A model generated the notes under the pieces. That model did no database searches, was not told the DNA's origin, and saw only the letters and a list, made by a program, of their open reading frames with translations. This document shows positions 6,484 through 62,985 of a DNA stretch of 64,000 bases, piece by piece (position 1 is the first letter of the stretch; each line of letters starts with the position of its first letter). Origin of the DNA: Ginglymostoma cirratum (Eukaryota); NCBI GenBank assembly GCA_024137785.1, contig JAHRHZ010000058.1, positions 17,500,599-17,564,598 of the forward strand, written 5' to 3'. The position numbers were made by a program, and so were the translations under genes.

Positions 6484-7097
6484 AGATGGTAGGAACTGCA
6501 GATGCTGAGAATCTGAGATAACATGGTGTAGAGCTGGATGAACACAGCAGGCAGGCCAAGCAGCATCAGAGGAGCAGGAAGGCTTACGTTTTGGGCCTAG
6601 ACNNNNNNNNNNNNNNNNNNNNNNNNNNNNNNNNNNNNNNNNNNNNNNNNNNNNNNNNNNNNNNNNNNNNNNNNNNNNNNNNNNNNNNNNNNNNNNNNNN
6701 NNNNNNNNNNNNNNNNNNNNNNNNNNNNNNNNNNNNNNNNNNNNNNNNNNNNNNNNNNNNNNNNNNNNNNNNNNNNNNNNNNNNNNNNNNNNNNNNNNNN
6801 NNNNNNNNNNNNNNNNNNNNNNNNNNNNNNNNNNNNNNNNNNNNNNNNNNNNNNNNNNNNNNNNNNNNNNNNNNNNNNNNNNNNNNNNNNNNNNNNNNNN
6901 NNNNNNNNNNNNNNNNNNNNNNNNNNNNNNNNNNNNNNNNNNNNNNNNNNNNNNNNNNNNNNNNNNNNNNNNNNNNNNNNNNNNNNNNNNNNNNNNNNNN
7001 NNTTTTTCTGAAGAAGGGCCTAGGCCCAAAACATCAGCCTTCCTGCTCCTCTGATGCTGCTTGGCCTGCTGTGTTCATCCAGATCTACACCATGTTA
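6484..7097. mobile_element. Fold-back Penelope-pLTR/hammerhead mini-element (copy 1), centre lost in the gap
   Basis: Arms 6520-6602 and 7003-7097 are reverse complements; TSD tcccagcctatccag (6469-6483) / tcccaacctatccag (7098-7112). Confidence 0.8.
6603..7002. other. Assembly gap (400 N)
   Basis: run of N. Confidence 0.98.
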
Positions 7098-9249
7098 TCC
7101 CAACCTATCCAGCCTATTTTTAGAACGCAAACCCTCCATTCCAAGCAACATCCTGGTAAATCTTTTCTAAACCCTCTCCAGTTTAATAATATCCTTCCTA
7201 TAACAGGGCGACCAGAATTGCACACAGTACTCCAGAAGAGGCCTCACCAACATCCTGTACAACCTCAACATGACATCCCAACTCCTATACTCAATGATCT
7301 GAGCAATGAAGCCAAGCAAACTAGATGTGTTGTTAACCACCCTGTCTACCTGTGATGCAAAGTTGAAAGAATTATGTACCTGAACCACTAGGTGTCTCTG
7401 TTTGACAACACTATCCAGGGCCCTACCATTAATTGTATCAGTCCTGAGCTTGTTACCAAACCAATTGATCAGTATTTTACACACTCTACACCATAATATA
7501 ACTGGCATTGGAAGGAGTGGACTGTTAGTTTATTGAGCCCTAGTTGAAAACAGGCAGAAAAGAAGGGGCATCACATTGTTCACTAGGGTGCAGCATGCAA
7601 ATTGGAGCTATTCAGCCACTAAGATATTCCTGTCTCTGTTTCTTCCCATCTGCCCTCCACAACCAGAGCCCCCATCCCCCTCATCCGCCTTCCATCCTTA
7701 GGCTGCCTGAACCGCATACCCCTCATCCAAAAAAAAGATCTGCGTTACCTAGCTTGGCAATCATGATCTCCTGTTTGTAGGCCACTTTGCAGTGCCCACT
7801 ACTGGGTCCTGTTGATGCTAGGACATCTAGAGGTTGGTTGGCTGGCTGCTCTTGAGGTTGGTGTTTTCACCCAGCTGTGCATTATGGCTGCTGCTGGGGT
7901 TCTTTCACTTGTGATGGCTGCCAGCTAACTTCCCTCTGAGGGGACAAGCAGCCTGAGCTCCCCACCTCTGCCAGTAAACACCAGCCCTATGAAATCATGG
8001 ACACATGAAGCCAGTACACAGGGGGCTGAGATACAGTTTAATACTCTCTGCCTCTTTTCTAATGGTAAGGAACAAATCTTCTCTAGACATATGGCAGGGT
8101 AAAATTGACTTCTGGATTTTCAGTCATAGTCCCATGCCCTGGCCCACTCATATTACTATTGAACATGGATATGGAAAAAGTGTGTATCCTTGATATAGTT
8201 CTAATCCAAAATCATTTACCTTCCAGATCCTAAGACTTACAGCATGAATCTTGATTGTAAAATTTGAACATTTTTTTTTTAGACATCTTGGTGCCTGATA
8301 ATTTGCTGGCAGAAATAGTCATGTTTGTGAGAGCAAGAATAATGAAATAAAAATATGAATTATCTCCATCAAGATTTGGCTTCGTCTTCATAATTCATGA
8401 TAGATCCTTTCTGGAGATGACTTTTTATACATCTCTGCAGTTTACAACAGTGCTGAGAAAAAGAGTTATTGTCATAGCGATGTGTATAATTGGGCACTGT
8501 GAAATATCTACCACTAATTGCTACACTTTTGATGAAGAAGATTGTTAATTGGAATTGCATATGTTTTGAGTAGCTCATTTCTAGAGATGATACAGGACAG
8601 ATTTTGTAATTCCTTTTGGAGCCAGAACCAGTCATGTTATCTGATGAATCCACACCCCTTTCCATTTCAGTCACGAAAACAATTACTTAATCTGAACCAT
8701 TTTAATGGTTTGAAGTTTTGTGAATTGCATAACTGGTCACAACAAAATGTTACTTTCTTTAATTATATATGGAAGGTCTATAAACTGTAAATTTCATAGC
8801 ACGAGAAACAAACTGAGCAAGAGAGCGAATGTAGTTAGAATACTGAACTGCTTCAAAAATATGACCATCAACACAGTTTTTAATAGGTTCAGTATGACTT
8901 TGACGATTGGTTAGCATTGCAATTTGTGGATTAGTGAGTGTAGAGTGTGTTACTGTCCAAATTAATCCAGCATTAAAATCTCTCATATGTTACCTTTAAA
9001 GGACAGGTTAAGCAACCAGAAGCACTGCTGTGCTGCCATGAAAACCAGGACTGTAATCTGCAGCATTTTTGCATTTTAAATGGAGTACAATTTCAGCAAA
9101 TATGTCACACACTGGATAGTAATCATAACCTTGGATGTTACCCCCCACCACCTCCAAAATAAAATGAAAATGTAATAATCAAATTAAGGTTTGTCTTCAG
9201 TTGTGCAATATTTAGTAATAACAAAAAAATTGCATTATTTACATAACAG

Positions 9250-19866: not shown

Positions 19867-20083
19867 CAGAGATAGTAAGAACTGCTGATGCTGGAGTCAA
19901 AGATAACACAGTGTGGAGCTGGAGGAGCGCAGCAGGCCAGGCAGCATCAGAGGAGCAGGAAAGCTGACATTTCAGGTTGGGACCCTTCCTCAGAAAGAAG
20001 GAGGAGGATCCTGACCTGAAACGTCAACTTTCCTGCTCTCCAATGTTGCCTGCCTGCTGTGCTCCCGCAGATCCACACTGTGT
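19867..20083. mobile_element. Fold-back Penelope-pLTR/hammerhead mini-element (copy 2)
   Basis: Inverted arms around ~19995; exact 12-bp TSD tatatttgccga (19855-19866 / 20084-20095); minus-strand core CTGAGGA-AGGGTCCCAACCT-GAAATGTC. Confidence 0.88.
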
Positions 20084-23600: not shown

Positions 23601-24000
23601 TTAGCCCAGCTCGTCCCCGCCTCCCTAACCTGTCCTTCCTCTCACCTATCGCCTCCTCCCACCTCAAGCCACACCCCCATTTCCTACCTACTAACCTCAT
23701 CCCACCCCCTTGACCTGTCAGTCCTCCCTGAACTGACCTATCTCCTCCCTAGCCCCCTACCTACACTCACCTTTACTGGCTCCATCCCCGCCTCTTCGAC
23801 TTGTTTGTCTCCTCTCCACCTATCCTCTCCTCTATCCATCCTCTATCCGCCTCCCCCTCTCTCCCTATTTATTTATTTCAGAACACCCTTCCCCTCCCCC
23901 ATTTCTGATGAAGGGTCTAGGCTTGAAACGTAAAGCTTTCCTGCTCCTCTGATGCTGCTTGGCCTGCTGTGTTCATCCAGCTCTACACCTTGTTATCTCT
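23601..24000 (+). mobile_element. Penelope-like 3' end (pyrimidine-rich tract + pLTR with hammerhead core)
   Basis: CTGATGAAGGGTCTAGGCTTGAAACGTA at 23905-23932, followed by the same pLTR sequence as the fold-back elements. Confidence 0.8.
23905..23932 (+). ncRNA. Putative minimal type I hammerhead ribozyme core (Penelope type)
   Basis: CUGAUGA box, short stem II, GAAAC then GUA; activity unverified. Confidence 0.5.
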
Positions 24001-26427: not shown

Positions 26428-26640
26428 AAGTGTGGAGTTTGCACATTCTCCCCGTGTTTGCGTGGGTTTCCTCCAGGTGCTCCGGTTTCCTCCCACAGTC
26501 CAAAGATGTGCAGGCTGGGTGGATTGGCCATGCTAAATTGCCCATAGTGTCTAGGGGTGTGTGGGTCTGGGTGGGATGCTCCAAGGGTCGGTGTGGACTT
26601 GTTGGGCCAAAGGGCCTGTTTCCACACTGTAGGGATTCTA
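26428..26640 (+). mobile_element. HE1-type V-SINE, 5'-truncated
   Basis: V-domain and tail homologous to 2569-2891. Confidence 0.85.
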
Positions 26641-26733
26641 ACGAAAAATTCTAATAAAGTCTCACTTTTTTCTACACACATCATCTCAGCTTGAGTGTCT
26701 GGTCTTTTCTGGAACCTTTATTTTCTCAGCTGT

Positions 26734-28525: not shown

Positions 28526-29205
28526 TGATGGAATTTGAAGTACAGTCAAAGGTAAGTTAAATTTTGTTACAAACATGTTTCATTTTACAAAACTTCAGCA
28601 TGTAACGGAATAGTCGGTATTAGAAGTGTGTCTAATGGAATTTAACCATATTTATCAAGGATCACAGTTTATTTACTGACATATGGCCTTGAGCAGCATA
28701 TTTTATTATTCTTATTTAATTCTTGGAACATTTTGTAATTTTTGACAATTACACCCAGGAAAAACATTGGTCATTTAAGTTTGAGTAACATTCTTAAAAT
28801 AAAGGCCAACTCCAGAGGAATTAATTTTATTTCAAAACCCAGCAGCTGTATAAAAGCTTGACAGAGTAGTTTGTAGAAAGTTGCTACTCATGTGTCCCTT
28901 CAACTAAGACGTTTAATTCAGTTTAAACCTGGAGAATGAATAAGGTAAATTGGAGTCCAATCAAATGGCAGACTCAGTTGGTCGAGAAGAGGAGATAGAG
29001 AAGATAGTGGGAGTAGGAGGTCATCTGCAAACTACCTGTCCAGGAGGATGTGGACAAAGGTTTACTTGGATTACTTACAATGGATTACTTGGAACGACTT
29101 GTTGAAAGGGAGGCAAGAACATTTACAATGTCTGGTCCTTAAGTCTGAAAGACCATTTAAACTTTGTACTCTTCCAATTATAAAATGGACAAAGATCAAA
29201 TATAG

Positions 29206-29410
29206 AGTGGAGCTGGAGCAACACAGCAGGCCAGGCAGCATCAAAGGAGCAGGAACGCTGACGCTTAGAGTTGAGACCCTTCTTCTGAAGAAGGGTACCG
29301 ACCCAAAACGTCAGCTTTCCTGCTCCTCTGATGCTGCCTGGCCTGCTATGTTGCTCCAGTTCCACACTGTGTTATCTCAGACTCCAACATCGGCAGTTAT
29401 CACCATCTCG
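29206..29410. mobile_element. Fold-back Penelope-pLTR/hammerhead mini-element (copy 3)
   Basis: Exact 14-bp TSD aagatcaaatatag (29192-29205 / 29411-29424); perfect central palindrome ACCCTTCTTC-T-GAAGAAGGGT (29276-29296). Confidence 0.9.
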
Positions 29411-29469
29411 AAGATCAAATATAGTTCGCTCTCAGTTATGAGCTCTCAAGACATCAATCTTACATGAAC

Positions 29470-43905: not shown

Positions 43906-45032
43906 AACTTAAATGCGACAGATTGTTGACATGTTTTGACACAGGACTGTCAATAATGATTGCTACTGGTGCGAGTCCTTTCAAAGGAGGAATATTACTT
44001 TTATGTGTCTTTCCCCATGGAGATGAAACACTAATATCATGTGTGTAAGGAGTGTTATCAAAGACGTCAGAAATATCTTCAGATTGAATATGAAACATTG
44101 GCCATTGGGTTTGCACTGAACGAGTTTTACATGCATTTATATGACTACAATTACCTACACACGACAGATAGTAAAATGTTAACAGCTTTATTGGGCCCAC
44201 ACAAAGACTTATGAATATTTGTAGCTAAGAGAATGCAAATATAGGCAATGTACCTGGCAGGGTTTATTTAAGACCTTATGACTGATGTTCAAAGGTAAAC
44301 AGTAATCTGTGTTGTTGGTCAAGGTTGCCTGAGGACTAATGCAGATCCAATAGTACACAAATCACATTGGTAGTACTCCATATTGATGGCTTGCTATGTA
44401 GTAGGGAAGAAATTTGCACTCACGCACGCAAGGACATGTCCTTTCTAAATCATGATGTAGTCTTGGATGGCTAGCTGAGCAAGTTCTTCGAATAAAGTCT
44501 AGCAGGAGGTTTTCTTTTCCTCTTAGGTTTTCTCAGCCTCTGAGGAGACATGGGGATGGGTGAGTCTTGTTTCATCTCAGATCTAGCCTTTCCATCCAGA
44601 TTTCTTAACAACTCTACTTCATTTTGTCTTTAAGTTGGTTCAGTAGTTGCAGCCTCTAACCTCTCATGATGTGTGGAAATCTGTGTAGGAACGATCTTAC
44701 ACTATCAAATTTTTCACTGTAGATGGTATGTTGTTAGAAATTACATAGGCAAAATGGAGGGAGACCCAGTACTACTGAAAATGGGGAAGGTTAACTCACT
44801 TATAAGGTTCAAGTGCAAACAGGAATCTGGAAATACCATGTAGAACAGCTTTTACCGAGGATATGTGCAATGTTGAAATGTCAGAGAAGTTACAGCTCTT
44901 ACTAACAAGGAAACCTAAGCTTTCACTATCTTAGGCTAATGACATGCCCATCAATATTTTGGGTACTCACCCCATCATCCTGTTTACATTCCAGCTGCAA
45001 ATTCACATCTGTTACTGCTTATACAGAAACAT

Positions 45033-45340
45033 TGGGCGGCATGGTGGCTCAGTGGTTAGTACTGCTGCCTCACAGTGCCAGGGACCTGGGTTCGATTCCA
45101 GCCTCGGGTGTCTGTCTGTGTGGAGTTTGCACATTCTCCCTGTGTCTGCGTGGGTGTGCTCCGGTTTCCTCCCACAGTCCAAAGATGTGCAGGTTAGGTG
45201 GATTGGCTGTGCTAAATTGCCTGTAGTGTTCAGGGAGGTAAGGGTTGTTGCGGGGGTGGGTCTGGGTGGGATGCTCTGAGGTTCAGTGTGGACTTGTTGG
45301 GCCGAAGGGCCTGTTTCCGCACTGTAGGGATTCTATGATT
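45033..45340 (+). mobile_element. HE1-type V-SINE, full length
   Basis: A box tggctcagtgg, B box ggttcgattcc, V-domain, gattctatga tail. Confidence 0.88.
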
Positions 45341-46354
45341 TTATGTAAATGGTGGTTCTGACAACATTACGGATTCATTAAGCATGTCTACGTCTGGATA
45401 TAGAATTGAAGTTTGTTCTGCACTTGCCTGCTGTAAATGTCAAGAGGAAATTGGGCTTTAGTAGCAAACAAAAAGCAATCCATCTGGTGAACTGGTAGCC
45501 TAATACTTCAAATGACATCCACTGAATGAAGGCAGCTGTAAGGATGAAGTGAGCAGGCATTTGCATTTGGGACCCTCCTGATCCAAGTTGAATAACGGCT
45601 AGAGTGTGAACAAGTTTTTTTTTGTCACCTGTTCCCAACATGAGCCAAAACTCCGTTGAACTTGTTTGAACCTGCTCCAGATTCCATGGAAGCAGCTGGA
45701 GGTAAAGACATATAAACTGAGAATATATTTCACACAGAAAGCCTTTTAAAAATACAGTTTCATACTGTACTTAAAAAGAACAGAATGTACATAATTCATT
45801 TTTCATACAACAACATTATGCAAATCTTAACATTAACTCAAATAGAGCCATGTTATCTCAATCTCCTTGTACCCTACAAATCTCTAACACTATAATAGAC
45901 TTAGTAGAACTATTAGAGTTGTTTAGAACACTTTAGCTGAATAAACCAAAAGTTTGCCATTGAGGAAATAGTTATCTTGGCTATATTGCATGAACCTGAT
46001 TGAGATAAAGCTAACCAGTTTGCCAAATTAATGAATGGGAGGGAGGGAGGGCAGTTGAATGTCCATAATTGAATTCATGATCTCAGCTGATTGAAATCAG
46101 TTCATTCCATAAAAATGTAGCACCTGAGATGTCATGGTGACTTGGTGACTAAATCTTGATGCAACAGATATTCAGATCTCCAGCATCTGCAGTTCTTTGT
46201 TTTATGTTATGTACATGATCCCTCATTGCTCCTGATATCAGATTCACATGTTAAATCATCCACTTTATGTAATGTGGTTATGGTCTAATATGTGCTGCTG
46301 ACTGGTAGTATGTTAATTGAATAATTAAAACATAATTTTTGTTTGAAATGGTAT

Positions 46355-62261: not shown

Positions 62262-62392
62262 GTATTCACAAAACTTGGCCTTAGCTGATTTTTTTGTGAA
62301 TGTAAAGTTACCTTCGCGTTGTTACTAACCCTATACCGGTTAATACGTGGGGACATTTCATCATTATTCTTGACCTTTACTAAAACATATTA

Positions 62393-62742
62393 GGGGCACC
62401 ATTGTGGCTCAGCGGTTAGCACTGCTGCCTCACAGTGCCTGGGTTCAATTGCACCCTCGGACAACTGTTTGCACATTCTCCCTGTGTCTGCATGGGTTTC
62501 GGCTGGGTGCTCTGATTTCCTCCCACAATCCAAAGATGTGAAGTTTCAGTGCAGTAGCCATGCTAAATTGCCTGTAGTGTCCAGGGGTGTGTACTTTAGG
62601 TGGATTAGCCATGGGAAATGCAGGGTTACATACGGAAAGGGTAGGAGAATGGGTCTGTGTGGGATGCTGTTCAGAGAGGTGGTTTAGACTTGTTGGGCTG
62701 ATTGGCCTGTTTCCACGCTGTAGGAATTCTGTGATTCTATGA
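62393..62742 (+). mobile_element. HE1-type V-SINE
   Basis: tRNA-like head, V-domain, gattctatga tail. Confidence 0.85.
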
Positions 62743-62775
62743 TATTGTGAAACAGCAAACCAGCAATAAAAATAT

Positions 62776-62985
62776 CGAAGATACCACGAACTGCAAATGC
62801 TAGAGTCAGAGTCAACACAGTATGGAGCTGGAGGGACACAGTTGGTCAGGCAGCATCAGAGCCGCAGGAAAGTCAATGTTTCGGGTTGGGACCCTTTTTG
62901 TTCTGAAGAAGGGTCCCAACCTGAAACATCGACTTTCCTGCACCTCTGATGCTGCCTGACCTGCTGTTTTCCTCCAGCTCCACGA
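62776..62985. mobile_element. Fold-back Penelope-pLTR/hammerhead mini-element (copy 4)
   Basis: Inverted arms around ~62900; TSD caataaaaatat (62764-62775) / caataacaatat (62986-62997); + core CTGAAGA-AGGGTCCCAACCT-GAAAC. Confidence 0.85.

Follow-up and report, generated by a model that had tools for sequence, protein, structure and literature searches.

Insertions of EN+ Penelope-like elements (PLEs) are described as carrying an inverted, 5'-truncated copy of the pLTR, a tail of 30–40 bp on one side only and a TSD (PMC3846280; PMC8557442). The mechanism of inversion is, in the passages of these reports on which we draw, either left open or ascribed to self-priming on an antisense transcript, and PMC8557442 calls the origin of the inverted repeats with a one-sided tail undefined. 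In vitro, the element PAc from Anolis nicks and extends both target strands, with two start sites that bound the tail; PAc is predicted to be dimeric and uncut RNA is its main template (PMC11167929). That study detected no sign of ribozyme cleavage in vivo, and the passages considered draw no tie to inverted insertions or to TSDs. The minimal type I hammerhead of PLE pLTRs is defined by CUGANGA, an extra base before helix II and GAAAC-GUC, and has no helix III; in Schistosoma, pairs of the motif lie on opposite strands 100–700 bp apart (PMC4209133).

We analysed a 64-kb stretch of the Ginglymostoma cirratum genome, called the window below, in which a sequence-only reading had described four insertions, each with its own TSD and each made of a ~125-nt unit and a shorter inverted arm. 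This description is confirmed: in all four inserts the arms are head-to-head, the TSDs are 12–14 bp long, and the ~125-nt arm is the one that bears the tail. We number the unit from the C of CTGA (+1). In the insert at 29206–29410, a tail-less arm on the minus strand (29206–29285, unit ~+3 to +86), likely the cDNA from an inner RT start site, meets a tailed arm on the plus strand (29283–29410, −1 to ~+125), likely the cDNA from an outer one. The junction is a 3-nt overlap, TTC/GAA, at 29283–29285, with the tailed arm starting from −1 and the tail-less arm from +3. The Penelope tail of ~33 nt (29379–29410, plus strand) is present on that arm only, and the insert is flanked by two identical 14-bp TSDs, AAGATCAAATATAG, at 29192–29205 and 29411–29424. 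Around one base, 29199–29285 and 29287–29373 are complementary at 85%, and the overlap of two cores that had been quoted for this axis is indeed present, at 29276–29296.

The other three inserts have their tailed arm on the minus strand. They lie at 6484–7099 (13-bp TSD with one mismatch, 6471–6483/7100–7112; the centre is lost in a 400-N gap at 6603–7002), at 19867–20083 (12-bp TSD, 19855–19866/20084–20095) and at 62776–62985 (12-bp TSD with one mismatch, 62764–62775/62986–62997). The list of copies was right for these four inserts and missed a fifth copy on the plus strand, at 23603–23999, where a tail-less unit is preceded by 300 nt of upstream element body that includes a TATA-like TATTTAT at ~23870–23880 and an Inr-like CCATTTC at 23899–23905. 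The inserts sit between the exons of a plus-strand gene of Ig I-set repeats, and are ordinary dead insertions in its introns. At least 16 exon-like frames of this protein, which we take to be hemicentin-like, are found on the plus strand between 678 and 62281. The window also contains four copies of a tRNA-headed SINE-like repeat, presumably HE1-like, at 2566–2891, 26430–26654, 45030–45349 and 62390–62745.

The Penelope origin that the earlier reading gave to the hairpins is supported by a full copy of the element found elsewhere in the genome (locus L291), in which the unit stands at both ends of an ORF with RT and GIY-YIG domains (Pfam RVT_1, E 4e-5; GIY-YIG, E 3.3e-5). This copy is frameshifted, and RVT_1 falls below the Pfam cut-off while GIY-YIG passes it. 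The two cysteines between GIY and YIG that belong to the CCHH motif and characterize EN+ PLEs (PMC8557442) are present (VVYCIRCTHCGFLYIG). Ahead of the endonuclease, L291 has a linker of the CX4CxxC type, CNRRKCYTC; the passages cited describe a CX2-5CxxC linker as a trait of Neptune/Nematis that is absent in Penelope/Poseidon (PMC8557442), which places the parent with the former rather than the latter. We call the parent of the hairpin unit a Neptune-type Penelope-like element, the linker being what groups it with Neptune/Nematis. The insertions themselves have the ~33-nt tail at one end, the inverted 5'-truncated copy and the TSD of EN+ PLEs, and the best 30 genome matches of the unit include body-bearing arms, arms that begin at the core, and palindromes. 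We also considered that the unit is the start of the ORF, as in Anolis, and rejected this: the frame of the ATG in the core stops just past the tail, and the long ORF of L291 begins near L291:2222, downstream of the tail.

The same genome harbors a second Penelope-like family that has its own minimal hammerhead, a TATAAA and an Inr, a tail and palindromes. It is found at L046:3850-3990, L189, L278 and L290, among many loci, and one of its patterns has 3,091 exact starts without body. Arms of the two families are directly fused at L046, L246, L290:9261-9430 and L294, which reflects either nested insertion of one family at the end of the other or mixed templates. Short tandems at L181, L178, L196, L163 and L179 consist of a unit, 60–250 nt of ORF start and a second unit that starts at −4/−3, often after a G; they are likely template jumps after priming deeper in the ORF.

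To place the four inserts in the genome, we sampled 140 stretches at fixed positions, amounting to 863 kb without N; 49 of the first 120 were entirely N, and 74 of 212 profile hits were set aside as second family or weak. The 138 family arms of the sample make up 25 short palindromes, 7 gap-centred ones, 8 long fold-backs flanked by TSDs (388–3120 bp) and 58 unpaired arms; many such "solo" arms retain a few bases of the opposite arm. A single layout, in which TSDs enclose a tailed arm and an inverted arm that lacks the tail, thus spans sizes from ~130 bp to ~3 kb, and the long fold-backs extend inward up to the endonuclease (L066). The sample has 29–37 short or gap-centred palindromes per Mb, a density that may be somewhat high since the last 20 stretches lie beside N-free, mostly copy-bearing ones; if 55% of the assembly is readable, it extrapolates to a genome total of about 70,000–90,000 short hairpins. 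Assembly gaps of ~400 N lie at the centre of palindromes in the window (6603–7002) and at L034, L040, L067, L278 and L281–L283, so that the junctions that can be read may not be representative.

Among 94 palindromes with readable flanks, 72 have a TSD score of at least 9, against 5 of 94 shifted controls; the TSDs are therefore not due to chance, and a lack of TSDs in most copies, which the earlier reading had regarded as fatal to its own interpretation, is not what we see. TSD length ranges from 10 to 21 bp, mostly 12–16 bp, with a mode at 14 bp.

The 3' ends of the arms are bimodal, at ~+95 or ~+128, and tail-less arms mostly end between +90 and +98. All 25 sampled short palindromes in which both ends are readable have one arm with the 33-nt tail and one tail-less arm (one of these second arms reaches +115). 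Over all loci, some of them chosen by pattern, the rule holds in 97 of 108; 8 of the 11 exceptions are cut by N, one is a three-arm insert and two are double-tailed. The double-tailed palindromes are L009:1501-1736 and L153:1511-1694, and the flanks of the former also look inverted. At the tail ends, 28 of 54 show an overlap of at least 2 bases between target and template, compared to ~8% expected by chance; at the tail-less ends, an overlap between TSD and template is seen in 10 of 39.

Either arm can be the one that extends further 5': it is the tail-less arm in 35 of 81 inserts and the tailed arm in 31, with 15 ties; in the fixed-position sample, the respective counts are 11 and 9 of 25. 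This bears on the idea that one target-primed cDNA folds back and copies itself into the second arm. Junctions do make use of self-complementary words close to the axis (AT, AAGCTT, helix II), and the arms match within one insert, as a fold-back would have it. But a copy made in this way can neither exceed its tailed template at the 5' side nor gain a tail, so that RNA must have templated both arms in at least 35 inserts, and folding back does not account for a second arm that ends at +90 to +98. We consider this explanation unlikely in general: it is largely refuted for these 35 inserts and could hold for some of the other 31 and 15.

Another model, put forward for rotifer Penelope (PMC3846280), is self-priming on an antisense transcript, which has the merit of yielding the head-to-head geometry and of having been published for the same layout. 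It predicts neither the pile of 5' ends with an extra G at the sense Inr, described below, nor the overlap of target and template at both outer ends, and in our opinion it is a shade less credible still than a cDNA that folds back.

The two arms of one insert are close relatives. Mismatch at subfamily-diagnostic positions is 8.5% between arms of one insert and 39.5% between inserts (7% and 35%, respectively, when arms are typed by motifs), and the mismatch between inserts is equal for tailed–tailed and for tailed–tail-less pairs. Tailed arms form no lineage of their own, nor do left and right arms. The earlier reading had singled out this comparison, arms of one insert being most alike pointing to hairpins made anew at each insertion, and this is the pattern that we obtain. 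The matching arms are compatible with one RNA or with two RNAs from the same source, and could also result from later gene conversion. The inserts L161 and L162 look like two haplotypes.

The first option of the earlier reading, a non-autonomous, retrozyme- or MITE-like hairpin that replicates as a whole, does not survive these observations. Its attraction is the very high copy number, tens of palindromes per Mb, and one symmetric junction does recur (12 of 100 among the matches listed). This recurring junction occurs on different subfamily backgrounds, 26 short palindromes have 25 distinct types of junction, sizes range from 130 bp to 3 kb, and left and right arms have no separate lineages. 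In addition, folding of the palindrome RNA is predicted to yield a single long hairpin (−134.5 kcal/mol) in which the ribozyme is buried. MITEs have symmetric fixed ends, a uniform length and a short fixed TSD, unlike the present inserts, whose ends are asymmetric, whose length varies from 130 to 3100 bp and whose TSD varies from 10 to 21 bp. Non-LTR retrozymes share with the hairpins a derivation from PLEs, the lack of coding sequence and the type I hammerhead, but they are defined as head-to-tail tandems of two or more units (10.64898/2026.07.22.740005); the hairpins are head-to-head single events. Replication of whole hairpins is refuted as the main source of the inserts, and of all the explanations considered here it is the one to which we give the least credence.

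The 5' ends may tell where the templates began. For 217 arms that were not selected on that end, the density of ends is 9.4 per nt from −6 to 0, against 0.11 per nt upstream and 1.7 per nt downstream. The main pile, C-4/A-3, lies 3–4 nt upstream of the hammerhead core. A-3 is within CCATTTC, and TATTTAT lies ~31 nt upstream; by comparison with consensus motifs, the former is Inr-like and the latter TATA-like. In the second family, TATAAA and TCAGTT occupy the same register, and the same palindromes are seen. The "fixed axis" of the earlier reading is not borne out: of 26 short palindromes in the fixed-position samples, only 9 have both arms beginning no further 3' than +7, and 18 have one arm or both extending to +2 or beyond it in the 5' direction. 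As to its second option, hairpins that form anew at every insertion as a stereotyped product of integration, that much stands, but the notion that the RT always folds back at the ribozyme does not, since the main pile lies upstream of the core and the tail-less arm is often the one that reaches further 5'.

Many arms of the main pile begin with a G that is not in the template. Among unselected arms, 9 of 17 have this G before A-3, versus 20 of 87 elsewhere (p 0.018), and 9 of 10 have it when symmetric junctions are left aside. The G is likewise seen at 16 of 25 body-less loci and, among the matches listed, in 18 of 43 rows, versus 7 of 60 control rows. A G also precedes C-4 in 23 of 57 rows, again among the matches listed; several of these tallies, this one included, are hand counts among the first 100 matches listed. 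The second family shows the extra G in 16 of 48 non-C rows, which is not significant (p 0.12). A variant template that bears a G was rejected as the source, for body-bearing copies have C at this position in 15,858 of 16,214 cases (non-C, 356). A splice acceptor at −24 was likewise rejected as the boundary: there is no pile of 5' ends there. An extra G is the mark of cap copying in L1, according to the part of PMC11702581 that deals with it. Judging from sequence, the main 5' pile is likely the transcription start and the extra G the copied cap. Four sets of contigs, presumably assembled from RNA, mark no point at which molecules start or stop when aligned to L291:1800-2500, as is to be expected of contigs.

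A smaller pile of 5' ends is seen at +29, the predicted cut of the ribozyme: exact starts across the genome number 966 at +29, against 237 at +27, 236 at +28 and 323 at +31, and 8 arms of the sample start between +28 and +30 (nominal p 0.02). The upstream pile is far larger (4,176 exact matches, for a more mutable pattern). About 44 of 100 rows at +29 among the matches listed abut GGAAA(A) of the partner arm, and point variants may account for 22 of 100; since about two thirds of the listed rows could thus be microhomology or point variants, the pile is suggestive only. The predicted ribozyme possibly has a minor role, a minority of templates being cut at +29.

These same rows favor an explanation in which two primed cDNAs are made, but where the 5' pile is a hot spot for RT stalling or joining below a C-rich tract rather than the end of the RNA, and the +29 pile reflects microhomology at AAGCTT only; the lack of a clear extra G in the second family goes in the same direction. 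On the contrary, stalling adds no G, the spacing between TATA and Inr is conserved in two families of different sequence, and the C-rich tract is passed by the many long arms, namely the 15,858 exact body-bearing copies mentioned above. We therefore regard a stall as improbable, on a par with the fold-back of a single cDNA.

The hammerhead itself is in a poor state in the window. The claim that each arm reads CTGANGA-GGG..CCC-GAAAC-GTC is not confirmed: none of the 8 window arms matches exactly and 2 of 8 pass a relaxed descriptor. In the 29206 copy neither arm passes: its core (29285–29312, plus strand, predicted cut after 29312) is decayed with respect to the minimal type I descriptor (PMC4209133), GAAA having become AAAA. 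The reading as a minimal type I hammerhead is nevertheless supported by the commonest haplotypes of the family, of which the intact core, with its boxes and the extra base before helix II, is a property. Read by eye, helix II is preserved with three different loops, and helix I is ATTT/AAGT in the first family and AGTT/AACT in the second, with only 2 bp in the GTCAGC subfamilies. The core boxes are like those of the PLE pLTR hammerheads of PMC4209133, whose relevant passages contain no analysis of junctions; most window copies, by comparison, are decayed. An Rfam scan of the window gave no match to any hammerhead family with an E value of 1 or less, and only hairpin or miRNA look-alikes below gathering scores. 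One of them is the hairpin at 62825–62980, whose match to a miRNA precursor family has 72 bits, under the gathering threshold; hairpins of this type are a source of false miRNA calls.

We argue that the hairpins correspond to the shortest insertions of a Penelope-like element, in which two target-primed cDNAs run off at the 5' end of a capped RNA and are joined, a mechanism that we consider probable; the hairpins are likely made afresh at each insertion. The GIY-YIG of the element would first nick both strands ~14 bp apart. Each target 3' end would then pair with 1–4 bases of the RNA and prime at an internal site; there would be two such sites, ~+95 and ~+128, each probably served by one protomer of a dimer. 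If the template is the front copy of the unit in a capped transcript that starts at C-4/A-3, both cDNAs would run off after 100–130 nt, the cap being sometimes copied as an extra base; if it is the downstream copy, the arms would enter the 3' UTR and the ORF, and give the long fold-backs. Last, both cDNA 3' ends would be trimmed and joined across a few bases that are shared or added. The position of the axis near the hammerhead would follow from the transcript beginning with the hammerhead.

In twin priming of L1, the cDNAs are copied from separate parts of the RNA, whereas here both would cover the same stretch, from two fixed sites and in most insertions. The likenesses with L1 are priming at the second end, the TSD of 12–18 bp, the cap G and joins at microhomology, as far as they are treated in the passages used (PMC11702581). 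PAc and the present element would have in common a pair of internal RT start sites on either side of the tail, the nicking and extension of both strands, a dimer, and uncut RNA as main template. PAc is a Poseidon element, while the linker found here is that of Neptune/Nematis; the start sites of PAc are given without a difference between strands (PMC11167929, in the sections concerned), and here the long ORF starts after the tail and a target–template overlap of 1–4 nt is seen. With described EN+ PLE insertions, the hairpins share the layout, the tail at one end, the TSD, TATA and Inr inside the pLTR, and palindromes at junctions (PMC3846280; PMC8557442, in the parts consulted); here, most copies consist of the two terminal arms only, at tens per Mb. 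A palindrome described in PMC2997562 was considered as a precedent and rejected, having no tie to Penelope.

The inserts are thus not a new replicating element: they belong to a known class, have a known shape, and their layout was already published. What is new in detail is the tail rule, the fact that either arm may extend further 5', the 5' pile at the Inr with its extra G, and the smaller pile at +29. In our search of the PLE literature, we did not find double priming, the cap G or this family described; an entry in Dfam or Repbase is possible. Whether PLEs as a rule insert by symmetric double TPRT, with a dimer that nicks 14 bp apart, one priming per start site and a capped RNA, so that tens of thousands of hairpins record transcription start, cap and in vivo cleavage by a minimal hammerhead, is to our mind a broader claim for which the balance is even.

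Such hairpins break assemblies and mimic miRNA precursors. Their ends give exact predictions, namely one start site per strand, a 14-bp stagger, copying of the cap and a minor cut template, which can be tested in the existing PAc assay; an open mechanistic question is thereby made testable. Double priming would explain the long-puzzling mirror-image shape of Penelope-like insertions, and the genome of Ginglymostoma cirratum is a very large natural record of the integration reaction.
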